DNA of 64,000 nucleotides, from the IMG/VR virus record IMGVR_UViG_3300028734_000016; one strand, 5' to 3'. The DNA comes from a virus. Lineage: Duplodnaviria > Heunggongvirae > Uroviricota > Caudoviricetes. How positions within the stretch are numbered: position 1 is the first letter of the stretch; each line of letters begins with the position of its first letter. Positions 13,113-34,075 of this stretch are shown piece after piece. Below the pieces are notes generated by a model. It was not told the origin of the DNA and did no database searches. It was given only the letters and a program-made list of their open reading frames with translations. A program made the position numbers and the translations under genes.

Positions 13113-13502
13113 TTATATACTTTTAAAATCTTCCAGTATTTTATCTATCATTTCACCACTGTGAATCTCGTCATATATATGTCCAGTTTCTGTGTTATAT
13201 GGTATTGCATATACATCAAAAACTTCATCAACAATTGAATAAATACACACAAAATCATTTTCAATGTCTAGTGATGCAGGAAAATCCAATGACATGAAAA
13301 TTTTCTTAGCTCCGTCATCTAAATATTGTTTTGCCATTTTATAGCATGATTCAACATCACCTCCCAATGCTAATGAATTCATTTCGAATTTACCATCATT
13401 TGTTTCTACAAATAATTGAAATGGATAATGTCCATAACAATCTTCACTTTCAATTAATTCAATTTTAACTAATTGTTCTACAAATTCTTTTACATTTTTC
13501 AT
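13113..13502 (-). CDS. hypothetical protein
   Basis: 129-aa ORF. Confidence 0.5.
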   Translation of the reverse strand: MKNVKEFVEQLVKIELIESEDCYGHYPFQLFVETNDGKFEMNSLALGGDVESCYKMAKQYLDDGAKKIFMSLDFPASLDIENDFVCIYSIVDEVFDVYAIPYNTETGHIYDEIHSGEMIDKILEDFKSI

Positions 13503-13515
13503 ATTATATTATTTT

Positions 13516-14010: not shown

Positions 14011-14115
14011 ATTTAATTGTTGAATAACGAATATAAGGAATATATTTCACATAAAAAAATAGTTAGATAAAAATCTAACTATTTTTTTATAAATCTCTAT
14101 TTAATATATTTTTTA

Positions 14116-14634: not shown

Positions 14635-14635
14635 A

Positions 14636-15391
14636 TTATTTTACTTGTTTAAATACATATTTCATATAATATTCATCAAAACCATCCATCATAGTTGTAA
14701 TTGAATTGGATTTATTATCAGCTAATCCAATGACATTATCTATCAAACCATAATTCAAAGCTTCATCAGAATTTAACCACATATCTCTTTGACAAAAATC
14801 ATGAATTTCTTCAAATGACTTGTCAGTATTAAGAGCAAGAATTTTGAATAGTAAAAAATTGTATTTTTCAGTTTCCATTTGACTAATACGAGTATCATCT
14901 ACTTTGCCACTAGTTCCTGCTGCAACGTGATGTAGCATAACTGTTGAATTAATTAATGATGAACGCTTACCTTTTGCTCCAGATGATAGAAGTACACTAC
15001 CCATTGAAGCGCACATTCCTAAATTGACTGTGGCTACATTAGGTTTAATATAGTTCATAACATCTATGATTCCTAACCCATGAGTCACACTACCGCCTCC
15101 TGTATTAATTTGCATTGTAATGTCCTTTTGAGGATCAGAATCTTCTAAATATAATAATTGTGCTTGAATAATATCAGACATTGTATCATCAACGTCACCA
15201 GACACCCATAAAATTCTATCCATCATAAGTCTATCAAACACAGATAGTTGAGTTACATTCAATTGTCGTTCTTCTAAAACATGAGGAGATAAGCCATAAT
15301 TTTCAGCTTGATATTTTGTTGCATCATCTACTAATGTAGAACTCATTCCTAAATGTTTGGTAGCAAACTTTTTAAATTCATTTTTGTGCAT
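14636..15391 (-). CDS. clpP: ATP-dependent Clp protease proteolytic subunit ClpP
   Basis: GMCASMGS (Ser), MLHHVAAG (His), ILWVSGDVDD; full-length canonical ClpP. Confidence 0.9.
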   Translation of the reverse strand: MHKNEFKKFATKHLGMSSTLVDDATKYQAENYGLSPHVLEERQLNVTQLSVFDRLMMDRILWVSGDVDDTMSDIIQAQLLYLEDSDPQKDITMQINTGGGSVTHGLGIIDVMNYIKPNVATVNLGMCASMGSVLLSSGAKGKRSSLINSTVMLHHVAAGTSGKVDDTRISQMETEKYNFLLFKILALNTDKSFEEIHDFCQRDMWLNSDEALNYGLIDNVIGLADNKSNSITTMMDGFDEYYMKYVFKQVK

Positions 15392-15427
15392 AATTTAATA
15401 TTTTAATTATTAATTGATTGATTGAAT

Positions 15428-15436
15428 GCAAAGATA
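15428..15436 (-). promoter_or_regulatory. TAtcTTTGc box ~36 nt upstream of the clpP ATG
   Basis: plus-strand GCAAAGATA. Confidence 0.45.
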
Positions 15437-15558
15437 AGGAAATTTTTTGATTTACCAAAGGAAAATCATTATTATTTATATAAATAAACCTATAATTGAA
15501 TAATAAACTGATATGATTTATTGTACGATTATAGGTTTATTATAAAGTTGATTCAGAT

Positions 15559-15903
15559 TTAATCTTCTACTGGTTCATCTGTGCTAATTGAATCATCAGA
15601 ATTTTCTTCATCATCATTGAGTTGTGCTATCATCAAATCTTTCATTTTTTGCATCCTTTCGTCAGCAAAAAGTGATTTCACTTTTTCATCATCAATTGGA
15701 TATGAAATTTCATTATCTAATACATGATAAAGATAGTCAATAGCTAAATCTTGATCAGCTTTTTCGCAAATAAAATCAAGTAAAGCTAACTTTTCAGTCT
15801 CATTAAGATCAAAGATTTTAATTTCTTTAACCTCATTTAGAAATGTTTTCTGTTCTTCAGTTGATGGATTAACCATTTCTGACAATTTTTCTGTAATATT
15901 CAT
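15559..15903 (-). CDS. hypothetical acidic protein
   Basis: 114-aa ORF, D/E-rich C-terminus. Confidence 0.5.
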   Translation of the reverse strand: MNITEKLSEMVNPSTEEQKTFLNEVKEIKIFDLNETEKLALLDFICEKADQDLAIDYLYHVLDNEISYPIDDEKVKSLFADERMQKMKDLMIAQLNDDEENSDDSISTDEPVED

Positions 15904-15956
15904 AATTTTTTATTTAATTAATTTGTTTGTTGTTTAATTTTAATATTATAATTTAA

Positions 15957-16199
15957 TTAATATTCTTCTTCCTCAATTTCTGCTCCATCTTTATCTAAGT
16001 TTCTAAAATCATCATAATCATTAAGATCTTGAATGTCATTTGCTACCACCTCTACTATTTCAATATCATCATATGGTACGGGATTATCTTGAATAAGACT
16101 CTCTGCCAGTTCTTGTGCAAATTGTTCTACTCTCTCATAATCAGCTTCTTCTGATTCTATTGATAATGTCAATTGAATTTTGTATTCTTTTATTTTCAT
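15957..16199 (-). CDS. hypothetical acidic protein
   Basis: 80-aa ORF. Confidence 0.45.
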   Translation of the reverse strand: MKIKEYKIQLTLSIESEEADYERVEQFAQELAESLIQDNPVPYDDIEIVEVVANDIQDLNDYDDFRNLDKDGAEIEEEEY

Positions 16200-16214
16200 A
16201 TTTTGTTTTTGTTT

Positions 16215-16418
16215 TTATTTTATTTTATTATCTTCTAATACATAAATATTTCTTATCTTATGTGAAGGAGTGAATGTATAATTCTCTCCTATGTGTTGCC
16301 AAACACCATTATTTCCTATTGCTGTTACATTTTGTTTTAAACTATATTCATTCTCATATTCTGCAGGTATAGTAATTACTGTATTATCTTCAAGATTTAC
16401 AATTATATTATAATTCAT
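16215..16418 (-). CDS. hypothetical small protein
   Basis: 67-aa ORF. Confidence 0.4.
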   Translation of the reverse strand: MNYNIIVNLEDNTVITIPAEYENEYSLKQNVTAIGNNGVWQHIGENYTFTPSHKIRNIYVLEDNKIK

Positions 16419-16465
16419 AGATTTAATTTTTTCTTATATACTATAATAAAATAAATAAGTTTATA

Positions 16466-16780
16466 TTATTTATTGAATATTAGAGTTAATTCATCATTTG
16501 GGTAAGGATGCTTCAATAATTGTCTTTTGAATATTTTCAACATACTATCTTGCTTTGTTTTACAAATTGGAAAATTATTATTTGTTGTATTATTAAATTC
16601 CATCAATGTGTTATTGTCAAAATCTAAATCCATTGTATTATCAAAATTTATTGTTAATTCTAATAAAATATCATCATAAGAACTATCAAATCCTAATTGA
16701 TATGGATAAAAATTAATATTATATTTTTTATTACCATCAACATCTTCTAAATGTGAGTATTTTTTATCGTTAAATTTCAT
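16466..16780 (-). CDS. hypothetical protein
   Basis: 104-aa ORF. Confidence 0.45.
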   Translation of the reverse strand: MKFNDKKYSHLEDVDGNKKYNINFYPYQLGFDSSYDDILLELTINFDNTMDLDFDNNTLMEFNNTTNNNFPICKTKQDSMLKIFKRQLLKHPYPNDELTLIFNK

Positions 16781-16785
16781 AATTA

Positions 16786-17034
16786 TTATTCATAATAGAA
16801 TGCAGCAAATGGGTCATTCTTTATTGATTTTATTAAATCATATTGTTTATTTTTTGGTGTATTATCCAATATAATTCTAATCTCTGGTGTATCTTGAATT
16901 AAAAATCCACCAGTTATAAACTGTTCTCCATTTTTCTCAATTACAGCTAATCCATTTGTTCTTGATACCCTATTTGCAATAAGTTCAATTTCTTCGTAAC
17001 CATTAGTTTCTGGTGTGATGTGTAATGCTTTCAT
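16786..17034 (-). CDS. hypothetical protein
   Basis: 82-aa ORF. Confidence 0.45.
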   Translation of the reverse strand: MKALHITPETNGYEEIELIANRVSRTNGLAVIEKNGEQFITGGFLIQDTPEIRIILDNTPKNKQYDLIKSIKNDPFAAFYYE

Positions 17035-17579
17035 ATGTCTACGTTTATTATTATATTTGGTGTATATTTTTCTTCTATTGAATTAATATAATATTTATTT
17101 TTTGTATAAGTTATATTATAATTGGTTGTTTTATTATCATCATATCCAATTATTGCAATTACAACAATATCATCAATAGTGAAAATAGCGTCAATTCTAA
17201 TATAATTGTGAATTCTCTTATAATGACTTTCTAATTCAGTACAATATTTTTTATTGTTGTCACATATTTCTTTTTCCAAAGTTGAAATAATATTCAGTTC
17301 GTGTTTTATATAATTCAAATTTTTATAAATACTGCGTAAATAATTTTTACTTGATATTGATGTTTTTAATCTTTTGATATTTGGAATATCACGATTTGAA
17401 TAATATTTTACTACTGATTGATTATTTTTTTTTTCAATTAAAATATTAATAATATAATCTAAGTTATTTGAATTATAAAAAAATGATATTTTTTTTTCAT
17501 GACAACCTACAAATTCAACATCAAAATTCTTTTTGAATATATATTCTTCTATTTTTTTTATAGTCTCTGTGTCAGTCAT
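17031..17579 (-). CDS. hypothetical protein
   Basis: 182-aa ORF, ATGA overlap with upstream gene. Confidence 0.5.
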   Translation of the reverse strand: MTDTETIKKIEEYIFKKNFDVEFVGCHEKKISFFYNSNNLDYIINILIEKKNNQSVVKYYSNRDIPNIKRLKTSISSKNYLRSIYKNLNYIKHELNIISTLEKEICDNNKKYCTELESHYKRIHNYIRIDAIFTIDDIVVIAIIGYDDNKTTNYNITYTKNKYYINSIEEKYTPNIIINVDI

Positions 17580-18282
17580 CAGTCATCAGTTTAATAAGTT
17601 TTTCTTTTCTTATTATTTTAGTTATATCATTGCTAAACGTCTTGTTTGTTTCAATTTTTGAAATTAATGCTAATTTTTTTGACTCTCCATCATAATATAA
17701 CTGTAATAATATATTTGAATTATTATTATTTAAAAATACTGAAATATTATATCTTGAATAATGTTCTAATGATGTGTCAAATAATTTATCATTATATGTT
17801 TTTTTGCTATTTATTCTTAATATACTATTTTTTGATGAAAATTGAATAGTTATATAATCAGAATGAAATCCTCTAACTGAAAAATCATTATACTTTAAAT
17901 CATCATAATGATTATATGTTTTTTTAATATAATTATTTATTGTATCTTTTATACCTATTTTATCAATTTCTCTTTTTTGTATATAAATATCTAATTTTAT
18001 AATCTTTTTTAAAAATGTTTTGAAACTAGATATGATTTTTTTTTCTACACAAAAATCATTAATAATAGTAAATTCTAACTCTTTAATATCTGAAAATGGA
18101 TGACAGTTAAAAAAGGAGAACTTATAATCATCAGTGACAGATATAATATATTCTGATTCATTTATAATATATTTTATTTCTGCAAATGAAGAATATCTAA
18201 CATTTGAATTTGTTTCCCCAAAAATCAAATTTGGAAATTTTCCTGAATTTCTTAAAATATTATATACTTCTAATGATGTCAT
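17572..18282 (-). CDS. hypothetical protein
   Basis: 236-aa ORF. Confidence 0.55.
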   Translation of the reverse strand: MTSLEVYNILRNSGKFPNLIFGETNSNVRYSSFAEIKYIINESEYIISVTDDYKFSFFNCHPFSDIKELEFTIINDFCVEKKIISSFKTFLKKIIKLDIYIQKREIDKIGIKDTINNYIKKTYNHYDDLKYNDFSVRGFHSDYITIQFSSKNSILRINSKKTYNDKLFDTSLEHYSRYNISVFLNNNNSNILLQLYYDGESKKLALISKIETNKTFSNDITKIIRKEKLIKLMTDD

Positions 18283-18334
18283 TTATATTTAATCTTATCT
18301 TATAAAGATAATATATTTATTTGTAATTACCAAA

Positions 18335-20218
18335 TTAATTGTTCAACATTTTTTCTAAATCTTCAACACTTAACAATTTCACTCCAATCTCTTCTGCTTT
18401 AACTGCCTTGCTTGATAAAGAATTTTTATCTTTCATAACTAAGTATGTTAAATTTTTAGATACACCAGATGCAACTTTACCTGATTTTGAAATTATGATT
18501 TCTTCTAAATCTTTTCGTCGTATTCCAGTAAAACAAAAAGACACATTTTCTAATTCGTTTGTTACCATAATAATATTTTCTTTTTTTGTTTCAATTGTTA
18601 TTTGAGGTTTATCTTGTAACCATTCATAAAATGTATCATAAGCATCAAGATATGCATGTGCAGATTTATCTGAGAATCCTTTAATTGATAGAATTTCGTC
18701 AAGTGATGGTTTACCTTCAAAATGCATTAGTAATTCAATTTTTTTACTACCAAGATTCACAAAGAAATTTGAAGAATGCATTAATTTAGATAATTTGACA
18801 TTTTTTATAGAAGATTGAATACTATTATATATAATTTCAGCCCTTCTCTCACCAAATCTATCTAATGATTCTAATTCTGATTGTGTTAATTCCAATATTT
18901 GTTTAACAGTCTTATATCCAGAGTTATATAACTGATTGATAATACCTTCTGATACATTATCAGCTTCAAGTATTTCAAAGAAAGATATCAATTTCTTAAT
19001 TTCTTGTTCTTCAGTTCCTTCAACCATTAATTCTACTTCATTTTCATTCCAGAAAACTTTTGAACTACCAAAAGTTGGCATTTCAAATCCAGTTGCAGAA
19101 ACAATTTGAACAATCTTTGGTATTACCAAACCTGACCGAATTATTTTTACAATACTTCCAACTCCTAAATCATGTTTTTTTACAAATTTATAGTTATTTA
19201 AGGTGACACGTGATACTGTAGCACCATCAATATTCACTGGAATTATTCGCCCAACTGGCTTAAGTAATCCGTTTTTCGAAACTTCTTTTACAATTTCAAG
19301 TATGGTTGTTTCTGCTGATTCTGCCCATTCAGGATTCTTATATGCTCTTGCGTATGATGGATTATTGTTAGTTTCACGACCAAGTTTTTTTCTGATGTCT
19401 TTGTCATTTATATCAAAAACAAGTCCATCAATATCATAATCTTTACCCCATTCAATAAAAATATCATTTAGCTCATCAAAATTCAAATCTTTTGCTTTGA
19501 ATATTTTGTATGGTACATTAGATAAATTAGTACTGATGAAATCTAATTGTTCAGATTTATCTTGAGTGAAATCTTCGCTTGCATAACCATAACGAATATG
19601 TTTAGCAAATTTCAAATCTTCGGATGGAGTATCAGAATTTTTAAGTCCAGCAATCATATTACGAGCATTCTTAAATGGCTTACCATTATCTCTATAAAAT
19701 ACTCTACTATTAAAAACTTGTTTTGGAAAAATCATTTCTCCAATAGTAAACAAATTAATATTTTTACTATCATCATTCAACTTTTTGTAGTGCAAATGCA
19801 TAGTTTCGCCAGTGATGCCATTTCCTCTTGACCAAGCAAGTTGTTTATATTCATCTTTAAGAATTGACATACCATCATATTTTGATGTACAAACCAATTC
19901 TGTTTCTAATGGTAACCCTTTATTTTTCAACCATTTGTGAATTTCTACAATTGTGTGATATTTATCCAATGAATACATTGGAAATTTTAAATTTTCTTTT
20001 CTGTCTGGATTGACATCTTCGCTATCTTCAATAACGCCAGATTCAAATATTTCATTATCTGGGTCTAATTTTTGAAATGTAGAAATTACTTTATCATATT
20101 CAGGATCACTGATTTCAGGTTCTCCGTCACGATATTTCTTATTTAGTTTTTTGACTTCAACTGCTGCAGACTCAAACATACCGTATTCTAATAATCGATA
20201 AATTTCTGATAATTCCAT
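18335..20218 (-). CDS. ligA: NAD-dependent DNA ligase
   Basis: N-terminal YRDGEPEISDPEYDKV, adenylation motif SKYDGMS, C-terminal BRCT-like region. Confidence 0.9.
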   Translation of the reverse strand: MELSEIYRLLEYGMFESAAVEVKKLNKKYRDGEPEISDPEYDKVISTFQKLDPDNEIFESGVIEDSEDVNPDRKENLKFPMYSLDKYHTIVEIHKWLKNKGLPLETELVCTSKYDGMSILKDEYKQLAWSRGNGITGETMHLHYKKLNDDSKNINLFTIGEMIFPKQVFNSRVFYRDNGKPFKNARNMIAGLKNSDTPSEDLKFAKHIRYGYASEDFTQDKSEQLDFISTNLSNVPYKIFKAKDLNFDELNDIFIEWGKDYDIDGLVFDINDKDIRKKLGRETNNNPSYARAYKNPEWAESAETTILEIVKEVSKNGLLKPVGRIIPVNIDGATVSRVTLNNYKFVKKHDLGVGSIVKIIRSGLVIPKIVQIVSATGFEMPTFGSSKVFWNENEVELMVEGTEEQEIKKLISFFEILEADNVSEGIINQLYNSGYKTVKQILELTQSELESLDRFGERRAEIIYNSIQSSIKNVKLSKLMHSSNFFVNLGSKKIELLMHFEGKPSLDEILSIKGFSDKSAHAYLDAYDTFYEWLQDKPQITIETKKENIIMVTNELENVSFCFTGIRRKDLEEIIISKSGKVASGVSKNLTYLVMKDKNSLSSKAVKAEEIGVKLLSVEDLEKMLNN

Positions 20219-20250
20219 ATTTTTTTGTTTTATATTTTTTGTTTATGAAG

Positions 20251-20260
20251 TACAAAGATA
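20251..20260 (-). promoter_or_regulatory. TAtcTTTGta box ~33 nt upstream of the ligase ATG
   Basis: plus-strand TACAAAGATA. Confidence 0.45.
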
Positions 20261-20320
20261 AAAAATATATCTTGAATAAAAAAATTATTCAAGATATATT
20301 TATGAAATATATGAAATTTA

Positions 20321-21121
20321 TTATATTTTAACTTTTACCTGTTCTGTGTTCCTATTAATTGCATTAGATATGCTATAAAATTCAGGAAAGTCTAATGATT
20401 TTTCCATACTAACAAATGAATCTATCGTGCCAGGAGAAATATCTTTAACGTAATTTGAAAATTTATTAGTAGCATCCTGTATAGCTAATTGTCTTGTTTT
20501 CATTGTAGGTGTAAAATAAAACTCATCTTTAAATGCTTGAGACATTAATCCAATAAAATAACAGCAATCTAAATAATTTTCTATTTGATCAGTTGATTCA
20601 AATTTAAATAATTGATTATATTTTTGAATATTTGTCAACATTATATTTTTATCATCAGAATCTAGTACATTATCAATTATATATCTAACTGAAGAACGAA
20701 TTGTAGTTGGTTCATGTCCTCTTGTTGTAATAATCGCAAATAATCTTCCTTCTTTTAAAGTTGATAGTAATGATTTCCATGATGGTCCGAAGTCTTTATT
20801 TTTTATTGCTTTTTTGATATCATCAAGTAGTGAATTATCTCCTCTTGCTCCGCTGTCTACAAATTCTGAAAAAGTATATTTAGTATCAGCTTTCCATTCA
20901 TTATTATCTATATAATTATCTGGATATTTTTCACGTATTTTAGAAAAATCTTGTATTGATATGTCTTTATTTATCCATTTGTCATTTTCAAAATGTTGAA
21001 AGTGTAAAGGAGTATTCATGATAAGCAAATTATCATCAATATCAAATATAGAATATTGTGAATTACCTACACTTTGTTGCTCTAAAATAAATGAATTCCA
21101 ATCTTTGACTATTTTGCTCAT
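20321..21121 (-). CDS. hypothetical protein
   Basis: 266-aa ORF. Confidence 0.55.
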   Translation of the reverse strand: MSKIVKDWNSFILEQQSVGNSQYSIFDIDDNLLIMNTPLHFQHFENDKWINKDISIQDFSKIREKYPDNYIDNNEWKADTKYTFSEFVDSGARGDNSLLDDIKKAIKNKDFGPSWKSLLSTLKEGRLFAIITTRGHEPTTIRSSVRYIIDNVLDSDDKNIMLTNIQKYNQLFKFESTDQIENYLDCCYFIGLMSQAFKDEFYFTPTMKTRQLAIQDATNKFSNYVKDISPGTIDSFVSMEKSLDFPEFYSISNAINRNTEQVKVKI

Positions 21122-21447
21122 TATAAATTAAATTTTTTTGTAGATTTATACAATTCTGTATCTTTCATATATTCAACTATATCATTATATTCTTCGTCTG
21201 TTATAGATATTGTACCTTTTTGATAATTTTTCAAGGCAAAAGATATTTTATAACCGCCTGGTTTAAGTGAACTTTTATATATGCTGTCTGATTTTATAAT
21301 AAAATCAGGTGAATTTTGAAATCCGTGATTTTTTCTAAATTCATCATTTGTATTTACATAATCATCAACAACTCTCATCATATTATCATAATATCGATCT
21401 AATTGAATTTTCTTTGAATAATATTCGCCAAAACTATATACTGTCAT
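21121..21447 (-). CDS. hypothetical protein (ends ...KKFNL)
   Basis: 108-aa ORF. Confidence 0.5.
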   Translation of the reverse strand: MTVYSFGEYYSKKIQLDRYYDNMMRVVDDYVNTNDEFRKNHGFQNSPDFIIKSDSIYKSSLKPGGYKISFALKNYQKGTISITDEEYNDIVEYMKDTELYKSTKKFNL

Positions 21448-21495
21448 TTAATAATTTATTTTTATTTAATGTATATATAAAAATAAAAATCCATC

Positions 21496-22341
21496 TTAAA
21501 CAGATGGATTTTTCAATAATTTTGTTTTAATAAATTCTTCATCAATTTTAACTAATTGAATATCATGTGAGTTTATATAATCATCAATTTCAGTGTTACC
21601 TTCTTTTTTTAATTCTCCCATTATATTCCAAACATTCGAATAATCATTATCACCTTTTGATTTCTCAGAAATTAAAAGGTTAGTTACAATTTTTCTTTTT
21701 CTTTTTTCGTCTGAAGGAATATTTTCTAGTATCTTTTGATACAAGATATCTCCTCTGAAATACTCATTAAAGTTATTGTAATAATGTGTTGGATCGAATA
21801 TCATAATCTTCATTGATAAACCTTTATTATTATTAAATGCATACCAATCTTTTTCTCTTTCGTTCCATTCATCTTCTGATACATTTTCATCTGCATCACA
21901 TTGATTTTGACAATACCAATCTGTTAGAAATTCTAAAAGAATTTTTCTATGCTCTCCTACATTAATATTAGGAAACACTAATATTTTATCATTTTTACAA
22001 TCAATTGATAAACTAAGATCAACCATAAATTCATTTTTGTATTGTCCTTTTGATAATATGTTACCAGCTTGAAATAAATAAGAAATTACTGTTGTGTTAT
22101 CTTCAATTGAGATGTTTTTTATTTCATTTTTTATTGAATTGATTTCATTGATAGCTGAATATTCCATTTGATGAATAATATTACATTTTTCATCAACATG
22201 TAATATAATATTTCTAGCATAACACTTTGCTAATTCATTTTGTGATGCTCCTTCAAATCTATCAAATCTTTTCAAAATTTCTTCTTGTATATATGCTAAA
22301 CCATTTCTGGTCATCATGCCATCATATGCTTTTAAACTCAT
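21496..22341 (-). CDS. hypothetical protein
   Basis: 281-aa ORF. Confidence 0.55.
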   Translation of the reverse strand: MSLKAYDGMMTRNGLAYIQEEILKRFDRFEGASQNELAKCYARNIILHVDEKCNIIHQMEYSAINEINSIKNEIKNISIEDNTTVISYLFQAGNILSKGQYKNEFMVDLSLSIDCKNDKILVFPNINVGEHRKILLEFLTDWYCQNQCDADENVSEDEWNEREKDWYAFNNNKGLSMKIMIFDPTHYYNNFNEYFRGDILYQKILENIPSDEKRKRKIVTNLLISEKSKGDNDYSNVWNIMGELKKEGNTEIDDYINSHDIQLVKIDEEFIKTKLLKNPSV

Positions 22342-22601
22342 AATTCTTTATTTATATTGTTTAATTCTTTCAATTTGAATTTTCTTAATTCAGAATATTT
22401 TATAAATCTTTGCTTTCGAAAACTAAATCCTGGTATTTCAAATAAAGCAATTTCTCCATAACTATTTATGTTATTAAATGTATAAATATTACCAATTTTT
22501 AATAATCTTAAAGAGCAGTAGCCTAATTCCGCTCCAGTGTATTTTGATGTATTATCAATGCAAACAAATTTTTCACCTTTTTTATATTGAATTGATTTCA
22601 T
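22338..22601 (-). CDS. SH3-like small-protein family member (YKKGEKFVCIDN...LRKFKLKELNNI)
   Basis: alignable by eye with 24160, 24404 and 28346-29203. Confidence 0.55.
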   Translation of the reverse strand: MKSIQYKKGEKFVCIDNTSKYTGAELGYCSLRLLKIGNIYTFNNINSYGEIALFEIPGFSFRKQRFIKYSELRKFKLKELNNINKEL

Positions 22602-22603
22602 AT

Positions 22604-22828
22604 TTAATATTCTAGTTTTTCTCTATTATTTTTTAGATATTTATAGATACTTCCGAATATTTTATAAAAACTACCAATTTCACATATTACTTTTCTATTC
22701 TCAATTATCATTTTAACTAACTTAGATTGATTACCTGTCAAATTTTTTATATTTGATTCTTTAACCCAGTTAGAATATATTTCATTATCTTTCATATTCA
22801 AGTATATTATTTCACAAATATACAACAA
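22604..22828 (-). CDS. hypothetical small protein
   Basis: 74-aa ORF. Confidence 0.4.
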   Translation of the reverse strand: MLYICEIIYLNMKDNEIYSNWVKESNIKNLTGNQSKLVKMIIENRKVICEIGSFYKIFGSIYKYLKNNREKLEY

Positions 22829-22846
22829 AAAATTGATATAAAAAAA

Positions 22847-23209
22847 TTATTTATTTTTTATATCAATTATTGTATTAAATAATTTGTTAAATTTAGATTT
22901 CAAATCATTTAAATCTTTTTCGTATTCATTCATTTCATCTATAACAGCATCTATATCGCAGAAGAAATATTTATTGTTGTGTTCTATTTTTGAGTTTTTG
23001 AACTCTGTTTTATTTAATGGAAAACATAATCCAGTACCTTCAAAATCTTTATCATTTGCTAATCTTTCAACATAATAACCAATTGCTACTGCATATCCTA
23101 TATTATCAAAACCTATACATTTTGTTTTAATAAAACTATTTATATTATCATTATAATATTCTAAAATATATATTGGCTCTCCTACCAATAAATCTGTCCA
23201 TTTTTTCAT
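22847..23209 (-). CDS. hypothetical protein
   Basis: 120-aa ORF. Confidence 0.5.
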   Translation of the reverse strand: MKKWTDLLVGEPIYILEYYNDNINSFIKTKCIGFDNIGYAVAIGYYVERLANDKDFEGTGLCFPLNKTEFKNSKIEHNNKYFFCDIDAVIDEMNEYEKDLNDLKSKFNKLFNTIIDIKNK

Positions 23210-23220
23210 AATTTATAAAA

Positions 23221-23463
23221 TTAAAATTCATCATAACACCAAATTGGTGTGTGTTCTCCCATATAAGCACCAGCGGTATTGAATTCAAAGAATTCTAATG
23301 CTTCTTCTTCTGTCATACCATCAGTAATAAATATTTCTATACATTTTGATACTGAGTAAATTAATCTCATTGAATTCATTTCTAAACCAATTACTGCATC
23401 ATCCAAACCATCAGCAGATAATATTCCTTCATCTGGATAATTGTTTATAATTTCTTCTAACAT
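23221..23463 (-). CDS. hypothetical small protein
   Basis: 80-aa ORF. Confidence 0.45.
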   Translation of the reverse strand: MLEEIINNYPDEGILSADGLDDAVIGLEMNSMRLIYSVSKCIEIFITDGMTEEEALEFFEFNTAGAYMGEHTPIWCYDEF

Positions 23464-23478
23464 TTTTTACTATTATTT

Positions 23479-23913
23479 TCATATTATCAATTTACCATTG
23501 ATATGATCAAATTGATGTTGAACAGCTATTGAGTTCAAATCTTTTAATGTCAACAATTTATAATTCCAATTTATATCATAATATTTAATCATAACAATTG
23601 ACCTTCTATTAATAGGAAATTCCAAATTAGGTAAACTTAGACATCTCTCCTTATTTTGAATAAAAAGTCCATCAAGATATATTTCTGGATTAATAAATAC
23701 TTCCTTTAAATCAGGATTATCAATTATAAATAAATTTAAATTGTGTCCAACTTGAGGAGCAGACAATCCAAATTCAAATTTGTGATAATTAAGAGTTTCA
23801 AACATGTTTTTGATTAAGGAAAGTAGAAATGGATTCTCCTTTTTTACGTTCACGTTTATTTTTCTTAATTTTCCTGAGTTTAAATCATCATATTTAATTA
23901 TATCTAAAATCAT
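23479..23913 (-). CDS. def: peptide deformylase homolog with HQxDH in place of HExDH
   Basis: motif 1 GLSAPQVG, motif 2 ERCLS (metal Cys present), motif 3 QHQFDH; codon 23512-23514 is CAA (Gln) where the catalytic Glu is expected. Confidence 0.8.
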   Translation of the reverse strand: MILDIIKYDDLNSGKLRKINVNVKKENPFLLSLIKNMFETLNYHKFEFGLSAPQVGHNLNLFIIDNPDLKEVFINPEIYLDGLFIQNKERCLSLPNLEFPINRRSIVMIKYYDINWNYKLLTLKDLNSIAVQHQFDHINGKLII

Positions 23914-24131
23914 TTACCGTGCTTCTTTTCTTTCTTCTTTTCTTTAATTTCAGATTTCTCAATCGTCTTTTCTTCTAATTTCTCAGATGTTTCTGATTTG
24001 AAAAAATCCTTATATTCTTTTTTTGAACAATATTTCCATCCTTGTTCAATGTAAGATTTTATTGATACAACATCATTTATACTAGCATCAGGTAATTTCT
24101 TAAAGGTGTCTTTTTTTCTTAAAATTTTCAT
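23910..24131 (-). CDS. hypothetical small lysine-rich protein
   Basis: 73-aa ORF. Confidence 0.4.
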   Translation of the reverse strand: MKILRKKDTFKKLPDASINDVVSIKSYIEQGWKYCSKKEYKDFFKSETSEKLEEKTIEKSEIKEKKKEKKHGK

Positions 24132-24159
24132 ATCCTATTTTATTTTTATTATTTATATG

Positions 24160-24414
24160 TTATACTAAATTTAATCTATTTAGTTTGTCTTTTCTTTCTT
24201 TTCTTTCAAATTCATTGGGTGACAAAAACATTGTTCCTAATGGATTTACAAATAATACATGTTTTGCGTCAGATAATATTCTAAAATGATCTAAGTTAGT
24301 TATTTTTCCTTTGTAAATACAACAAATTTCATATGTTTTACCAATTGTTAAATATTTTTCATATCCTCCTGTATTATCAATACACACAACTTCATCTCTT
24401 TTTTTAAAATTCAT
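24160..24414 (-). CDS. SH3-like small-protein family member (...ERKDKLNRLNLV tail)
   Basis: RDEVVCIDNTGGYEKYLTIGKTYE core. Confidence 0.55.
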   Translation of the reverse strand: MNFKKRDEVVCIDNTGGYEKYLTIGKTYEICCIYKGKITNLDHFRILSDAKHVLFVNPLGTMFLSPNEFERKERKDKLNRLNLV

Positions 24415-24676
24415 TTGATAATAAATTATTTATATTTTCTAATTTTTCTTTTCTTTGAATTTTTTTATATTCAGTAGTTGATATAAATCTACTTAAAAAA
24501 ACAGTAACTCGTCCTTCATCAAAATCATCTGATTTTACTTGAACATGATAAGCACCATCTATTTTATCAATATACATAACTTTATAAGATTCTCCAATTG
24601 TTAATGAATTTTCATATCCTCCATCATTTCTAATACAAATAACTTTATCTCCTTTTTTATAATTTGTGTTATTCAT
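24404..24676 (-). CDS. SH3-like small-protein family member (...QRKEKLENINNL tail)
   Basis: KGDKVICIRNDGGYENSLTIGESYK core. Confidence 0.55.
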   Translation of the reverse strand: MNNTNYKKGDKVICIRNDGGYENSLTIGESYKVMYIDKIDGAYHVQVKSDDFDEGRVTVFLSRFISTTEYKKIQRKEKLENINNLLSNEF

Positions 24677-24696
24677 TCAAACCTAATTTTTTAAGG

Positions 24697-25413
24697 TTAT
24701 TTATCTACCAATTTTTTTCTATCTTCACTCAAATAATTTATAAGCAATTCTGACGCTTTTATTGAACCTGGAGTAGTTATACTACCAAGATACATATCTA
24801 ATTCAGGATATTGTAAATATATCGGTAATTCTTTATTTAAATTGAAATCTAAATTATTTTTATGAAAAAAATCTAATTCAGATAATGACATTTTAAAGTA
24901 ATAATTATCTTCACTAAAATATTCTTTTGTCATTCCTGACTTAAACATTGTTCTCAATATAATATAGACTACATCATTTTCAAAATCAATTTTTTCTATA
25001 AAAATATCATTACGATCACATAATGTACCAAATGTATATTTTTTATCCAATATTATATTTATATGATTACTTGATTTTAGATATTCATAATAGCCATCAT
25101 TAATATCTTTTTTCTCTTCTTCATTTAAATCATTATACCCTACACAAATCAAATCTGATGGTGAATTATAGCAACCTTTATTTCTATATGATGTTATAAT
25201 AGAACTCTTTATTTCAGAAGCAGATAATTTATCTTCATCGCTTAGAAAATTGGTATTTCTATGAGTAATATTTTGTTGAATATATTTCTTTATAAAAGAA
25301 TAATCCAAATCTTCAAATTTTAAAGATAAATCTAAATTTTCTTTATTGTGTTTACTTTCTAATTCCGCTGATTCTTTTTTAAAATCTAAGTGATGTTGAA
25401 AAAAATTATTCAT
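24697..25413 (-). CDS. hypothetical protein
   Basis: 238-aa ORF. Confidence 0.55.
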   Translation of the reverse strand: MNNFFQHHLDFKKESAELESKHNKENLDLSLKFEDLDYSFIKKYIQQNITHRNTNFLSDEDKLSASEIKSSIITSYRNKGCYNSPSDLICVGYNDLNEEEKKDINDGYYEYLKSSNHINIILDKKYTFGTLCDRNDIFIEKIDFENDVVYIILRTMFKSGMTKEYFSEDNYYFKMSLSELDFFHKNNLDFNLNKELPIYLQYPELDMYLGSITTPGSIKASELLINYLSEDRKKLVDK

Positions 25414-25672
25414 TTTTAATATTTTTTAATTTGTTGAGTTTTTCTATTCTTTCTTCTTTTAATCTTGCGATCTTATTTTCTCTTGATTCTATAAGATCTG
25501 ATATTGTTGTAGACATCATTATATAAGGAACAAAAATATATCCTTGTTCTAATGATCCTGTTGAACCAGAAACAACACTATTTGTATTCGCACTTACTGA
25601 AATATTACTATAACAATTTGGTGATATTTTAGATACACTATATCTTGATTTTACTGTTTTTAATGAATTCAA
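25406..25672 (-). CDS. hypothetical small protein (...RIEKLNKLKNIKNE tail)
   Basis: 88-aa ORF. Confidence 0.45.
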   Translation of the reverse strand: MNSLKTVKSRYSVSKISPNCYSNISVSANTNSVVSGSTGSLEQGYIFVPYIMMSTTISDLIESRENKIARLKEERIEKLNKLKNIKNE

Positions 25673-26109
25673 TCTCTATACATTAATTTTTTATTGTAGT
25701 ATATACTACCACAGGTTCCTTGTCCATATGTCATAGCAAATTGCCATCCTTTATATTCACATATATCAGACTGAAAATGTTCTGTGAAATCATCAATAGT
25801 TTCAGTAATTTCAACTCCTTCTTGTTCTGCTAAATCAAATAATGAGTTTAATAGATTAGTTGGATATGGCATACAACCATTTTTCCAGCATTTGTCTCTC
25901 CATTCATCACCATTTTTACATATTATTCTATTAACTAAAGAATCAAAAGTTTCTTGATCATTAAACATTTTTTTAATTCTTTCAATGTTATTATCCTTAA
26001 TATCTACTTCTAATTGTAATTTTGCTTTAAATTCACGAATACTTTCTTCTCCCTCAGGAGTTTTTAAAAACTCTAAATATTCGCTCATTTTCTCTGTAAC
26101 ACTTGACAT
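25669..26109 (-). CDS. hypothetical protein
   Basis: 146-aa ORF. Confidence 0.5.
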   Translation of the reverse strand: MSSVTEKMSEYLEFLKTPEGEESIREFKAKLQLEVDIKDNNIERIKKMFNDQETFDSLVNRIICKNGDEWRDKCWKNGCMPYPTNLLNSLFDLAEQEGVEITETIDDFTEHFQSDICEYKGWQFAMTYGQGTCGSIYYNKKLMYRD

Positions 26110-26127
26110 AATATTATAATTTATTTG

Positions 26128-26448
26128 TTAATCAAACCACATTCTAAAGTGGTTATTTGTTTCTTCTGAAAACTCATCAGGATGTTTTGATAAAATTAAC
26201 AACAGAAGTTTTTTGTAATTTGTGTTATCTGTTGTTTCAATATATAATGTTGACGAGAATTTATTTTCATTTTCTCCATCTTCAACATCAAAAACAATTT
26301 CTGATACACCGTATTCTTCAAGCTGTTCACAAAAAATTGAAGTCTCTCTCTCACTCCAATCTGAATATATCATATGTGTAGTGTAGTCAAACTCAACTAA
26401 TTCTCCATAATATATTCCATATTTTTCACTTTTATGTTCTATTATCAT
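26128..26448 (-). CDS. hypothetical acidic protein
   Basis: 106-aa ORF. Confidence 0.5.
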   Translation of the reverse strand: MIIEHKSEKYGIYYGELVEFDYTTHMIYSDWSERETSIFCEQLEEYGVSEIVFDVEDGENENKFSSTLYIETTDNTNYKKLLLLILSKHPDEFSEETNNHFRMWFD

Positions 26449-26450
26449 AT

Positions 26451-27128
26451 TTATAATTTTAATTTTTTGACTCCTTTTGTTGCTGTTTCTTTAATATGAG
26501 TGAAATTTCGAATATCAATACCAACATCAGAATCAGATGGATCAATATAATATGTGTGTGTTCTGAAATTTACTTTATATAACAAATTTGCTGCAGGATA
26601 AACTTGTAATGATGTTCCAATTACAATAAGAATATCTGCTTCTTTTGTTAATTTTTCAGCTTTACCCATATTTGGTACATCTTCACCGAACCAAACAATA
26701 TGTGGTCGTAATGTATCACCATTTTCATCTACACTATCTGTTTGAATATCAAAGTCTTTTGGCCAATCATAAACAGTATTATTGTTAAATGCTCTCATCT
26801 TTGTTAATTGTCCATGGAGATGTAACACATTTGTACTGCCTGCTCTCTCATGTAAATCGTCCACATTTTGCGTCACTATCTGAACATCATATTTCTGTTC
26901 TAATTCAGCAAGAAAGTAATGTGCAGAATTAGGTTCTACTGTATCTAATTGTTTATGCCTTTCATTGTAAAATTTTAATACCAATTTTCTATCTTTCCTC
27001 CAACCATCAATCGTTGCGACGTCTTTAACATCATATTGCTCCCAAAGTCCGTCAGAATCCCTGAAAGTTTGAATTCCGCTTTCTGCACTTATTCCAGCAC
27101 CAGTAAATACTACTATTTTCTTTTTCAT
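26451..27128 (-). CDS. cobB: Sir2-family NAD-dependent deacylase (CobB-like sirtuin)
   Basis: GAGISAESGIQTFRDSDGLW, QNVDDLHERAG, LHGQ; 225 aa. Confidence 0.85.
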   Translation of the reverse strand: MKKKIVVFTGAGISAESGIQTFRDSDGLWEQYDVKDVATIDGWRKDRKLVLKFYNERHKQLDTVEPNSAHYFLAELEQKYDVQIVTQNVDDLHERAGSTNVLHLHGQLTKMRAFNNNTVYDWPKDFDIQTDSVDENGDTLRPHIVWFGEDVPNMGKAEKLTKEADILIVIGTSLQVYPAANLLYKVNFRTHTYYIDPSDSDVGIDIRNFTHIKETATKGVKKLKL

Positions 27129-27132
27129 AATA

Positions 27133-27396
27133 TTATTGTATTTCTTTTAATTTAACTAGTTTTTCTTTTCTTAATATATTATTTGCATTATTATAATATT
27201 TAGAATATTTGAGTTCACTAAAATATTTATAATTAATCCAACTTTGATTAGGTGGCTCATAATCCATATTTGGTAGAAATGGTATAGAATCTTTATAATC
27301 TTTCACATAATCTTGGACCAAAAGATAATATGCAATGTCATCAAGTCTTGTTGGATTTATCAAATCCCAGCAGCCCCAACCTTTATCTATTTTCAT
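27133..27396 (-). CDS. hypothetical small protein (...RKEKLVKLKEIQ tail)
   Basis: 87-aa ORF. Confidence 0.45.
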   Translation of the reverse strand: MKIDKGWGCWDLINPTRLDDIAYYLLVQDYVKDYKDSIPFLPNMDYEPPNQSWINYKYFSELKYSKYYNNANNILRKEKLVKLKEIQ

Positions 27397-28371: not shown

Positions 28372-28591
28372 TCAATTGAATTAATTTTTGTTTTCTTGTA
28401 TATTGTTTATCTAATTCTGAATATTCATCTAAATATTTAGATTCAATAGATTTTTTCCTTACTGTATGAACTGATTTATTTGCTGGTATATCATGACTAT
28501 ATACATAATTATCATTTAAAATTTTTAATATTACTATTTTAAATACCATACCTTTTGTACCAACAACAACAGCTCCAACTTTATATCTCAT
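28346..28591 (-). CDS. MKYKVGD-type SH3-like small protein (tandem array member 1)
   Basis: MRYKVGAVVVG...TRKQKLIQLN. Confidence 0.6.
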   Translation of the reverse strand: MRYKVGAVVVGTKGMVFKIVILKILNDNYVYSHDIPANKSVHTVRKKSIESKYLDEYSELDKQYTRKQKLIQLNDTSAVVK

Positions 28592-28784
28592 TTAATTTTA
28601 TTAATTTTTGTTTTCTCATTGATTTAATATCCAATTCAGAATTATAGTCTAAATAATCGAAATGTACACGTTTAGACAAATTCAGACTTTTATTATCTAC
28701 ATAATAATAATATCCATCCCAAATTTTTAATATTACTAATTTACTATTCTTTCCGTCTACAATATCACCAACTTTATATTTCAT
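28581..28784 (-). CDS. MKYKVGD-type small protein (array member 2)
   Basis: MKYKVGDIVDG...MRKQKLIKLNEI; 11-nt overlap with next gene. Confidence 0.6.
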   Translation of the reverse strand: MKYKVGDIVDGKNSKLVILKIWDGYYYYVDNKSLNLSKRVHFDYLDYNSELDIKSMRKQKLIKLNEI

Positions 28785-28989
28785 ATAATTGTTTCAATTT
28801 TTCTTTTCTAGTAGATTTGATATCTAATTTTGATTCATTGTCTATTATTAATGCGTTGTAGTTGTGTACAAATTTTGATATTTCATTTAAATAATTTATT
28901 ACACAATATTTATATTCGTCATATTCATAAGATAAAATCATTATTCTAAAATAATCACCTATAACAATATCTCCAGCTTTATATTTCAT
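28774..28989 (-). CDS. MKYKVGD-type small protein (array member 3)
   Basis: MKYKAGDIVIG...TRKEKLKQLYEI. Confidence 0.6.
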   Translation of the reverse strand: MKYKAGDIVIGDYFRIMILSYEYDEYKYCVINYLNEISKFVHNYNALIIDNESKLDIKSTRKEKLKQLYEI

Positions 28990-29203
28990 GTAATTTATAC
29001 AATTTTTGCTTTCTCATAAATTTAATATTCAATTCTGTTTGATTTTCTATATAATCATAAGTAATGATATGTGTATCATCATTATCAAGAAATCTAAATT
29101 TATACTGAGGTTTTTTGTGAGTATAAATCATAATATCTAATATTATTGATTCACTATCATACATTTGTTTAAAATAAATAATGTCTCCTACTTTATATTT
29201 CAT
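28979..29203 (-). CDS. MKYKVGD-type small protein (array member 4)
   Basis: MKYKVGDIIYF...MRKQKLYKLHEI. Confidence 0.6.
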   Translation of the reverse strand: MKYKVGDIIYFKQMYDSESIILDIMIYTHKKPQYKFRFLDNDDTHIITYDYIENQTELNIKFMRKQKLYKLHEI

Positions 29204-29699
29204 TTAAACATTTCAATTTTAATGCTCTTATTTCTTTATTAGAAAAAATATTCAATTTTGTTTCATTGATAATATATGAAAATAATTTATTTTTAGTTAA
29301 TTCATATCTATTATCTATAGATATTGATTTTATAACGCTTTCTATATCAGATATTTCTCCAAATTGTTCATTGATAAATAGTTTATTTTTATCATAGCTA
29401 TATTCTAATGTCATATATATGTCAAATATTGGCTCACCATAAACATTATTATGAGTACTTTCTAAATAATCTCCTACTATTCTATCAAAACAATTGGACA
29501 AATAGCATAAATAATTTTCTAATAGAACTGATACAAATTCAGTTCCAGTAAAATCATCAACTTGTCTACGTAAGAAATTTTCAGTGAACCATTTTTGAGG
29601 ATTAATATCAGTTTCAGATGAAATGTTGTCTATTATTTCTAATTGATGTTTTACTTTTTTGTTCATCCAAACATTAAATGTATCTTCAAATGTTGTCAT
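29193..29699 (-). CDS. hypothetical protein heading the array (...IRALKLKCLNEI tail)
   Basis: 168-aa ORF; TAtcTTTGta box at 29725-29734 upstream. Confidence 0.55.
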   Translation of the reverse strand: MTTFEDTFNVWMNKKVKHQLEIIDNISSETDINPQKWFTENFLRRQVDDFTGTEFVSVLLENYLCYLSNCFDRIVGDYLESTHNNVYGEPIFDIYMTLEYSYDKNKLFINEQFGEISDIESVIKSISIDNRYELTKNKLFSYIINETKLNIFSNKEIRALKLKCLNEI

Positions 29700-31767: not shown

Positions 31768-31799
31768 AAAAAAGATTCATAATTTATGAATCTTTTTTA
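31768..31799. terminator. hairpin AAGATTCATAA-ttt-ATGAATCTT + T6 between convergent genes
   Basis: read directly. Confidence 0.55.
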
Positions 31800-32257
31800 T
31801 TTATATTATAAAGTTTAATTTTTCTTATGAATTTCTTATGATTTTTTGCTGTGACAACAATCATTTTATCATATTTAAATTTTACGCATAGCTTCTTAAT
31901 TTCTTCTCCTTTTATTGAAGTTTCTAAATCAAAATCAAGAAATCCTACAAATTCAACGAATGAGAATTTTTTCAAAAATGTAATGTAATTAATTGTACCA
32001 TCCTTTTTAAAATTTGATATTTCTAAATAATCTAATACAGCATTTTCACTAATCATATTATTTATAAAACTGAAAGGAATCAAATCTTCTTCATAAAGAT
32101 TAAGATTAAAAATCATGATATCATTTTTAATAGAAATACAATTATCACGCATATATGCATCATTGAATTTAACTTCAAATAAACTTTTATAAATAGCATC
32201 AAAATTATAATGATAATGATAATGATAATGATTTCCTGGAAACTGTTGTAATGGCAT
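31784..32257 (-). CDS. hypothetical protein (HYHYHYHY near N-terminus)
   Basis: 157-aa ORF. Confidence 0.5.
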   Translation of the reverse strand: MPLQQFPGNHYHYHYHYNFDAIYKSLFEVKFNDAYMRDNCISIKNDIMIFNLNLYEEDLIPFSFINNMISENAVLDYLEISNFKKDGTINYITFLKKFSFVEFVGFLDFDLETSIKGEEIKKLCVKFKYDKMIVVTAKNHKKFIRKIKLYNINKKDS

Positions 32258-33364: not shown

Positions 33365-34075
33365 TTAATCTTTTAATGACTTAAGTGTACTTAATTTCAA
33401 TCTTCTAAATCCATAAGATGCATCAATAATATCTAAATATAATCCATAATAATTATTAGATTCTTCTATTATATTTTTATATTTTTTGTATAACGAAATG
33501 TCTTCTATGTAATTGTTCACTTTAAATAACAAATCTGTTTGTTTCTCATTGTATGTATTTAGTGATGTTAGTGTTTCATTTGATTTATTTAATATATCGT
33601 CAAAATTATCGTCACAAATATTAAGGGTATAAATTTTATTTATGAAAAAATTGTTCTTGATATTATTATATATATTTTGAATATTTTTTGAATCTTCAAT
33701 TAGTGTTATATTTAAAGTTTCTATATTTTTGTTTGCGGATATTAAATTTATTTTTGATCTAACATTTTTAATTGAATCAATAACATAATAATATTTCTTT
33801 CTGGATTGTATTATATTATCTGTATATTCATATTCATTTTTTGTACCAAGAGATAAATATATTTTACCTTTATTGCATTCCATTTTTGATATGATTATAT
33901 TTATTTGTTTTTCTGAGAATTTTTCTGTCTTCCAAGTTTGAACTTTGGATATATCTTTAGTGAATACAAACGTATTATATTTTTCTGTGAGTCCACCATA
34001 TGAAAAATAAAAAATTCCAAATTCTGGGTGATTTATTCTTATTGCACACTCATTATTTATTTTTATCTTAGACAT
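33365..34075 (-). CDS. hypothetical protein
   Basis: 236-aa ORF. Confidence 0.55.
   Translation of the reverse strand: MSKIKINNECAIRINHPEFGIFYFSYGGLTEKYNTFVFTKDISKVQTWKTEKFSEKQINIIISKMECNKGKIYLSLGTKNEYEYTDNIIQSRKKYYYVIDSIKNVRSKINLISANKNIETLNITLIEDSKNIQNIYNNIKNNFFINKIYTLNICDDNFDDILNKSNETLTSLNTYNEKQTDLLFKVNNYIEDISLYKKYKNIIEESNNYYGLYLDIIDASYGFRRLKLSTLKSLKD

Follow-up and report, generated by a model that had tools for sequence, protein, structure and literature searches.

Recurrent C-terminal tails and the start codons embedded in them in a 64-kb stretch of an AT-rich megaphage

Two C-terminal tails and their carriers

The DNA considered here, hereafter the window, is the whole 64,000-nucleotide stretch of IMG/VR virus record IMGVR_UViG_3300028734_000016, assigned to the Caudoviricetes. 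This 64-kb window has 23.9% GC and is densely packed with about 107 open reading frames (ORFs), many of which end in one of two short C-terminal peptides that we call tail A and tail B. The junction between ORF 28581-28784 and ORF 28346-28591 illustrates how these tails meet the genes that follow them. On the minus strand, positions 28581-28598 (AAA TTA AAT GAG ATA TAA) encode K L N E I stop and complete the tail B of ORF 28581-28784. The ATG of ORF 28346-28591 (M R Y K V G) occupies positions 28591-28589, within the Asn-Glu codons of the upstream tail, and the 11-nt overlap at 28581..28591 (ATGAGATATAA) is dual coded, being read as (AA)T GAG ATA TAA (N E I stop) in one frame and as ATG AGA TAT AA(A) (M R Y K) in the other. 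ORF 28346-28591 in turn overlaps, by its last 26 nt, the start of ORF 27793-28371 (MILQQW...).

Tail A (K-F-N-[I/L/V]-stop) ends 12 of the 107 ORFs against 0.01-0.02 expected from residue shuffles, with a maximum of one in 2000 shuffles. The sequence AAATTTAATATATGA, which encodes K F N I stop and carries an ATGA start/stop overlap, is present in exact form at 3768-3782, 5274-5288 and 5636-5650, and nine more ORF ends are near-copies that differ from it by 1-4 nt. Tail B (R-K-x-K-L-x-x-[L/I]-N) is found on 19 of the 107 ORFs. When searched as R..KL..[LIM] within the last 23 residues, it again ends 19 of 107 ORFs against 0.09-0.25 expected (maximum 3), and a single copy lies inside protein interiors (19,442 residues in all). 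Each tail occurs on both strands, and the KFNI and KLNEI endings described in an earlier note on this DNA were confirmed at the junction and in their exact copies. An artefact of composition was ruled out as their source by the residue shuffles, among them shuffles restricted to the C-terminal 23 residues. The coordinates of the tails and of other features of the window are collected in Table 1.

Most tail-A ends are gathered in two arrays. In the first, the ATGA overlap is found at six of the seven ends; the last ORF (6431-6976) ends in GTG TAG and is followed by a tRNA gene on the opposite strand. In the second, spacers of 82 nt and 54 nt follow the ends at 62893-62907 and 63407-63421, respectively. 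Four tandem tail-A paralogues begin with MKKYNQFINE (4857-4886, 5285-5314, 5647-5676 and 6060-6089, plus strand), a block whose DNA is near-identical between paralogues with bodies at most 34% identical. Of the 10 copies of this N-terminal block in the window and in loci L001 and L004, 8 contain TTC, a rare codon for Phe. Taken with the near-identity of the block, this suggests gene conversion or a constraint at the RNA level.

Several observations accompany the tail-A arrays. The first tail-A ORF (about 3516-3782, plus strand) measures 64 amino acids from its first ATG and its orthologues measure 89 (MKHLKTFENKPNEPKVGDY...); its frame extends further upstream (...LKYIKKFENKKDEPKVGDY...) with no stop and no ATG, so that a start codon other than ATG is probable. 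Four tRNA-Leu genes lie at 6973-8521 on the minus strand, with anticodons CAA, TAG, TAA and TAA, and a LAGLIDADG homing-endonuclease gene (7048-8238) separates the first of them from the other three. This endonuclease is present in locus L003 and missing from the same place in L001. The second tail-A array (61636-63820) is immediately preceded by a GIY-YIG endonuclease gene (60443-61621, plus strand).

The bodies that carry the tails are mostly different from one another. Once the tails were removed, 20 tail-B ORFs (collected with a looser pattern) fell into 16 BLASTP clusters and the 12 tail-A ORFs into 10. Ten tail-bearing ORFs had no significant match in Pfam or PHROGs, and a Pfam scan of further tail genes gave as its sole match an ankyrin-repeat protein with tail A (ORF 4393-4860). 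Tails can apparently be gained or lost between close relatives, given that the best match of tail-B ORF 32276-32518 (minus strand) in locus L006, at 6051-6353 (41% identity, 100 versus 80 amino acids), is devoid of the tail.

Structural models place the two tails in different settings. The AlphaFold2 model of ORF 28581-28784 (mean predicted local distance difference test, pLDDT, 85.5) is a five-strand SH3-like barrel (strands 8-41) followed by a C-terminal alpha-helix, residues 53-66, that corresponds to tail B. On a helical wheel of this predicted helix, R1, K4, L5, L8 and I11 fall on one face, and the hydrophobic face is narrow, with basic residues mixed in. In the model of the tail-A protein 4857-5288 (pLDDT 78.7), residues 1-9 are disordered, a long helix (117-140) follows the core, and the terminal FNI is outside the helix and of low confidence. 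The tail-B model invites comparison with SH3-like, Tudor and KOW small beta-barrels that carry a C-terminal helix; it had no significant match in a Foldseek search of the PDB, the best hits being generic PWWP, KOW and ribosomal-protein barrels (best E 0.05). The same search with the tail-A model and a sequence-profile search of the PDB returned nothing. The family combining the SH3-like barrel with the RKxKL helix comprises 906 cluster representatives at E<=0.001, and RKxKLxK[I/L] is retained in nearly all of 60 representatives inspected. Pfam matches of relatives were weak and below threshold (SH3_15, DUF6501, DUF7244 and Phage_ProQ_C_like), and no Pfam, PHROG or PDB family covers the barrel-helix unit.

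Table 1. Coordinates of tails A and B and of other recognisable features in the window
Feature	Coordinates	Strand	Details
Tail B of ORF 28581-28784	28581..28616	-	RKQKLIKLNEI stop; core R57-N65 at 28590-28616; post-motif E-I-stop at 28581-28589
Tail B of ORF 28346-28591		-	RKQKLIQLNDTSAVVK; SH3-like paralogue, downstream of 28581-28784
Tail B of ORF 28774-28989	28774..28809	-	RKEKLKQLYEI stop; next ATG within TAT-GAA
Tail B of ORF 28979-29203	28979..29014	-	RKQKLYKLHEI stop; next ATG within CAT-GAA
Tail B of ORF 29193-29699	29193..29228	-	RALKLKCLNEI stop; unrelated 168-aa ORF; next ATG within AAT-GAA
Tail B of ORF 31784-32257	31784..31825	-	RKIKLYNINKKDS stop; convergent neighbour, 20-nt gap
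Tail B of ORF 33365-34075	33365..33406	-	RRLKLSTLKSLKD stop; convergent neighbour, 134-nt gap
Tail B of ORF 14116-14634	14116..14154	-	RKIKLDKLNRDL stop; directly downstream of clpP (14636-15391); then 105-nt spacer
Tail B of ORF 2836-3030	2992..3030	+	RKIKLKKLESNK stop
Tail B of ORF 47207-47932	47891..47932	+	RADKLNNILKNNE stop
Four tail-B ends	9623-9658, 13516-13545, 17572-17610, 22338-22385	-	
Four tail-B ends	24160-24195, 24404-24454, 25406-25450, 27133-27171	-	
Tail-B end outside the 9623..27171 span	32276-32311		
Tail-A array 1 (3768..6976)	ends 3768-3782, 4846-4860, 5274-5288, 5636-5650, 6049-6063, 6420-6434, 6962-6976	+	
Tail A of ORF 21121-21447	21121..21135	-	KKFNL stop
Tail-A array 2 (62041..63820)	ends 62041-62055, 62893-62907, 63407-63421, 63806-63820	+	
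ClpP, full-length	14636-15391	-	Pfam E=1.7e-54
ClpC-like double-AAA+ ATPase	50154-52682	-	Clp_N domain, two AAA modules, IGF loop GTGIGFG
Sir2-family protein	26451-27128	-	
T4 gp9/10-like baseplate protein	145-1956	-	with collagen repeat
Collagen-repeat protein	54011-55651	+	
Mre11-like phosphoesterase fused to Rad50/SMC-like ATPase	56518-60273	-	1251 aa

Gene junctions and the translation start regime

The earlier note held that the tails end exactly where the ATG of the next gene overlaps. The overlap was borne out but the exact coincidence was not: in ORF 28581-28784 the overlap is 11 nt long and the ATG lies 8 nt before the stop codon. A different arrangement is frequent among 93 tail-B genes gathered from the window and five related loci (L001, L004, L006, L008 and L009). 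In 37 of them, counting from the first base of the Arg codon, the next ATG follows at exactly 25 nt, within codons 9-10 of the motif (NAT-GNN). These phase-locked junctions have N (24), Y (11), H (1) or D (1) at position 9, always spelled NAT, and E, D or G at position 10. In the other 56, the next ATG comes 16 to 411 nt after the Arg codon; N occupies position 9 in 29 of these and Y in only one, and N or K is the usual residue at position 10.

Overlaps of at least 8 nt were found at 54 of 88 tail-B junctions versus 8 of 119 in tail-less genes, which overlap mostly by 1 or 4 nt. Tail-B overlaps measure 8, 11, 14, 17, 20, 26, 32 or 44 nt, and the 36 tabulated junctions with the ATG in codons 9-10 span the range of 8-44 nt. 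The tail-A junctions are like the ordinary 4-nt ATGA overlaps known from co-directional overlapping genes and from translational coupling, in phages as in bacteria; the tail-B overlaps differ from ATGA and TAATG overlaps in being long and in being phase-locked to the position of a protein motif instead of to the stop codon. The genes downstream of phase-locked junctions are diverse and begin with MKYKVGD, MILQQW, MK(V/E/K)GD, MKVIC..., MEKPKT... and others. The end of the upstream protein varies with them, as in the pairs YESWR stop and MKVGD, NEI stop and MKYK, and DTSAVVK stop and MILQQW. In the L006 orthologue of ORF 28346-28591, N is replaced by Y at motif position 9 and the DTSAVVK ending is identical.

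What follows position 9, for example the E-I-stop at 28581-28589, is an out-of-frame shadow of the N-terminus of the next protein. Since the restriction to NAT and GNN applies only when the tail is overlapped, and since the shadow residues match the downstream N-terminus, the final two to eight codons of a tail are dictated by the next gene, through its start codon and the coding of its N-terminus, and not by A-richness. Many distant members of the family end in ...KICLNQEIE, and back-translation of these endings, known only as protein, would permit an MFKPGD shadow in another register. For annotation, residues after motif position 9 should be treated as translation shadows and not as conserved protein sequence, and the overlaps of 11-26 nt are systematic here, not errors of gene calling.

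One related locus shows an extreme expansion of tail B. In L009 (NCBI GCA_043658615.1, 1-20246; 20.6% GC), tail B is present on about 48 of 66 small ORFs, which have at least two types of body (MK-x-GD SH3-like and Cys-rich MKVIC...) and are chained via overlaps of 14, 17 and 20 nt. IS605 OrfB/TnpB-like fragments lie at 2740-3398 of this locus.

The translation regime in which these junctions operate is the one presumed earlier, that is, without Shine-Dalgarno (SD) pairing and with A-rich, unstructured leaders, a premise that holds in the window by composition and folding. GGAG, GAGG and AGGA upstream of starts are at or below background, the -20..-10 interval contains 60-71% A and 1-7% G, and regions -30..+20 have minimum free energies of -1.1 to -1.7 versus -3.7 kcal/mol in gene interiors (p=5e-18). 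An RNA-structure element at the junctions was ruled out, as nowhere in the window is structure weaker than in the junction regions. In Bacteroidia-type initiation, A at -3, -6, -12 and -13 together with low structure favours translation (Baez et al. 2019, PMC6847099). Starts in the window are alike in their lack of SD signal, poverty in G, abundance of A at about -11 to -16 and weak structure, with A at 0.58-0.70 at -3, -6, -12 and -13. The tails depart from that pattern (PMC6847099) in being coding, protein-constrained sequence with U at -3 and -12.

That the tail stretches are A/T-rich, as the earlier note stated, was likewise confirmed, but this property extends to all genes, the last 21 nt of which have an A content of 0.50-0.53 versus 0.43 in bodies.

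Origin of the tails

We consider it probable that the tails are protein-level tags under amino-acid selection, combined with a dual-coded junction. The invariant Leu5 of tail B is spelled TTA (6), TTG (5), CTT (4), CTA (3) or CTC (1) in the window, and the Arg is spelled AGA, AGG, CGT, CGC or CGA across the window and the five related loci. Invariant residues spelled by several codons argue for selection on the residue. Replacements within tail A in relatives are conservative (K[F/Y]N[I/L/V/M]). Furthermore, the bodies of tail-bearing genes show amino-acid differences of 0.38-0.40 versus 0.15-0.24 in other genes, and their tails, at 0.20-0.33, differ less than their own bodies do. The degenerate DNA pattern of tail B, AGAAARNNNAAAYTNNNNNNNYTN, has 11 matches in the window, each of which is in frame and followed by a stop 10-15 codons later; none was found out of frame, antisense or in the 51 leaders of the window classed as intergenic.

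The earlier note had proposed a different origin, in which selection on an A-rich, unstructured leader that works without SD pairing forces Lys, Asn, Ile and Glu codons onto the end of the upstream gene, so that the tails are only apparent protein motifs. The start regime described above (the PMC6847099 pattern) and a constraint on last codons, two parts of that interpretation, do stand. Tail genes are also more often closely followed by a co-directional gene (22 of 30 versus 30 of 75; p=0.0025), and leaders lying in tails, with A at 0.59-0.60, are as A-rich as intergenic leaders (0.56) and richer than tail-less gene ends (0.54; p=0.004). The derivation of the motifs from the leader nevertheless fails by codons, by context and by DNA pattern, and we regard it as very improbable. 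Tails do not track a downstream start: they are kept before gaps of 28-134 nt, and they and their orthologues are intact before convergent genes, an opposite-strand tRNA (tail A of 6431-6976) and spacers of 28-105 nt. Tails kept in such contexts are what the earlier note itself had named as refuting its proposal. Before convergent genes, the tail of 31784-32257 is matched by RKIKIKCLNEKDS in its L006 orthologue (6367-6834), which has the same convergent context, and that of 33365-34075 by RKLKLKLLNNINNH in its L006 orthologue (4629-5342). ORF 29193-29699, offered in the earlier note as a counter-example, is unusable in this regard since its downstream neighbour overlaps. Codon usage and A content of the tail-B core are alike in phase-locked, near and far or convergent classes, with GC of 0.128, 0.139 and 0.141, respectively.

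The conserved residues of the tails, with Leu kept through five codons, include non-A codons (TTT, TTA, CTT). At -3 and -12 of phase-locked starts, two positions at which A is favoured, the Leu/Ile codons of the motif supply U, and at -13 they supply U or C; in tail A, the Phe codon puts U at -6 to -8, and U is also found at -3. Gene 3' ends are moreover A-rich even with nothing following, genes with convergent neighbours having an A content of 0.515 in their last 21 nt versus 0.437 (p=0.007). What the leader does contribute was revealed by 68 orthologous pairs (window versus L001, L004 and L006). In closely followed genes the synonymous difference is 0.165 in the last 8 codons versus 0.247 in the body (p=0.016), and in genes not closely followed it is 0.271 versus 0.256. 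This suppression, which would favour the leader explanation, does not differ between tailed and tail-less genes, and in the latter it makes no motif. A small but real leader or overlap effect thus acts modestly at silent sites of closely followed genes. It is visible only at synonymous sites, and the comparison sets it apart from protein-level selection in SD-less hosts.

Two further explanations have to be weighed as well. The tails could be DNA-level homology patches that mark cassette boundaries at which small genes undergo modular shuffling or gene conversion, with the protein motif secondary. Such patches would be akin to the promoter-stem-loop cassettes that recur in hyperplastic regions of the T4 type, and they would suit the fixed phase at which the next gene starts after the tail, unrelated genes included, the block of about 45 nt formed by a tail-A end and the following N-terminus, near-identical in tandem paralogues with divergent bodies, and the homing endonuclease genes that flank both tail-A arrays, one of which is absent in L001. 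Tail-B DNA, however, is too variable for homologous recombination, with longest shared runs of about 6 nt; its x positions and Leu codons differ, amino-acid identity is held across synonymous codons, and the pattern appears only in frame at C-termini. We consider this origin quite unlikely. Hardly more credible is the proposal that the tails are the slowest-decaying remnants of one or two ancestral small genes, duplicated in tandem many times over, and only stabilise their own fold. Tandem arrays, recognisable paralogue groups and the integral, universally retained helix of the SH3-like family are what it would lead one to expect. Against it, the same tail is found on proteins of 64-241 residues that have no detectable similarity once tails are removed, among them the ankyrin-repeat protein; by prediction, tail A forms a flexible end and is not a packed element; and conservation of the tails contrasts with a rate of divergence in the bodies about double that of other genes.

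Several points weigh against selection on the protein as the whole account of the tails. The phase lock at +25 holds with non-paralogous downstream genes, and the tail may be partly selected as a start pad. Tails are enriched on closely followed genes, and synonymous sites in the last 8 codons of such genes are somewhat constrained. All 19 window tails spell Arg as AGA and Lys4 as AAA, a slightly greater uniformity than in the genome as a whole, where the usage of these codons is 0.79 and 0.90, respectively. Given the near-identical tail-A N-terminal block with its TTC codons, some homogenisation at the nucleotide level appears to take place at junctions. Finally, all relatives are AT-rich metagenomic contigs, a search for related loci with a narrow alignment having returned members of this one clade only, which blurs the distinction between codon and residue. 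In the orthologue comparisons the counts are small and some window genes are paired with two loci.

Under selection for protein tags, the following scheme may be proposed. Tail B would be an 11-residue amphipathic alpha-helix module, R-K-x-K-L-x-x-[L/I]-N-x-[I/L/V], and tail A a free C-terminal end, K-[F/Y]-N-[I/L/V/M]-COOH, that follows a long helix, both being attached to many small, fast-evolving proteins with mostly unrelated bodies. The junction with the next gene would be a secondary arrangement. Beyond position 9 the residues could vary freely, and AAT, the codon for Asn, already ends in AT; the next ATG would therefore very often come to lie in codons 9-10 (NAT-GNN), and the upstream ORF would continue in a shadow frame for 8-44 nt until it met a stop. 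The coding sequence of the tail, A-rich and unstructured, would have been co-opted as the leader of the next gene and not created by that role. Terminal peptide tags and overlapping genes are each known; their phase-locked combination is the new variant.

Genomic setting and possible functions of the tails

The window is part of a megaphage, since its proteins are also present on a 711,471-bp contig (about 24% GC) in public assemblies and since the closest GenBank phage matches of its Clp ATPase include uncultured phages of 635-642 kb. Relatives L001-L017 originate from environmental metagenomes. A distant 642-kb phage, LR756502, which provides the best ClpB-type match, has neither tail A nor tail B in 42 kb, and on this evidence the tails would be specific to the clade. 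A tblastn search of GenBank phages with one tail-A and one tail-B protein revealed no relatives, and a full-text literature search on C-terminal motifs of megaphages found nothing relevant. An N-terminal motif, M-K-x-[I/L]-K-x-F-[E/N], opens many unrelated ORFs with or without tails (in the window, those starting at 3779, 4393, 6431, 29786, 31353, 38225, 39451 and 43685 (minus strand); in L018, at 229, 793, 4383, 4920 and 5247), and it is also present in the tail-less LR756502.

Recognisable proteins of the window include an NAD-dependent DNA ligase, a ClpB/ClpC-type ATPase, ClpP, a Sir2-family protein, homing endonucleases and a gp9/10-like baseplate protein (Table 1). The IGF loop carried by the ClpC-like ATPase is the type of loop that docks such ATPases onto ClpP, and the two proteins together could make up a Clp protease of the phage's own.

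Address and docking tags are typically recognised as short, conserved peptides at the ends of small proteins that otherwise vary strongly, and a common tag of this kind, read by one shared partner, is for us the most likely function of the tails, favoured by analogy with just under even confidence. Candidate partners are the virion-packaging machinery, as with the capsid targeting sequence (CTS) of T4, or the phage ClpC-ClpP pair. The T4 CTS, MKTYQEFIAE, is carried by internal proteins IPI-IPIII (PMC8442874), which illustrate how a short conserved terminal peptide can be shared by highly diverse, fast-evolving small proteins (PMC3012670, PMC8442874). The tails have this same distribution. MKKYNQFINE, found on the four tail-A paralogues and on relatives, is identical to the CTS at 6 of 10 positions, a likeness that concerns N-termini and not the tails, and T4-like virion genes are found here as gp9/10-like (window) and gp13 (locus L008). 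Unlike the tails, which are C-terminal, the CTS is N-terminal and is cleaved off.

Other systems with short C-terminal peptides on unrelated proteins and a single reader machine are the ssrA- and MuA-type tags of ClpX and the cargo peptides of encapsulins. To our knowledge, the tails match no tag consensus of an AAA+ protease or encapsulin. As in AAA+ degron systems, the window encodes a peptidase of the cognate type (ClpP) and a ClpC-like unfoldase with its IGF loop, which makes a phage-specific turnover tag another candidate; in contrast to encapsulin systems, no encapsulin shell gene was seen in it. A membrane- or nucleic-acid-binding helix is the next likeliest function and one we regard as unlikely, with other functions sharing the remainder. 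The predicted tail-B helix may be compared with the C-terminal membrane-targeting amphipathic helices of the MinD/FtsA type; R1, K4, L5, L8 and I11 share one face, and the narrow hydrophobic face is mixed with basic residues.

When dozens of small, fast-evolving proteins in each genome share a terminal tag, this speaks for one machine that serves them all, for delivery, docking or turnover, in uncultivated megaphages. A shared tag is the kind of handle that made T4 internal proteins tractable, and it offers a ready-made peptide for pull-downs or cargo targeting. It is conceivable, albeit with less confidence than we attach to an address function as such, that the AT-rich megaphages of this clade share a standard C-terminal address tag that leads to one machine and whose coding sequence doubles as a start pad. 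If so, the RKxKLxx[L/I]N helix, with its more than 900 protein clusters, and K-F/Y-N-Φ-COOH would be examples of such a tag. They would send a large arsenal of small, quickly diversifying proteins either into the capsid, for co-injection, or to the phage ClpC-ClpP, and new ORFs could be spliced, frame-locked, behind tagged genes in an SD-less host.

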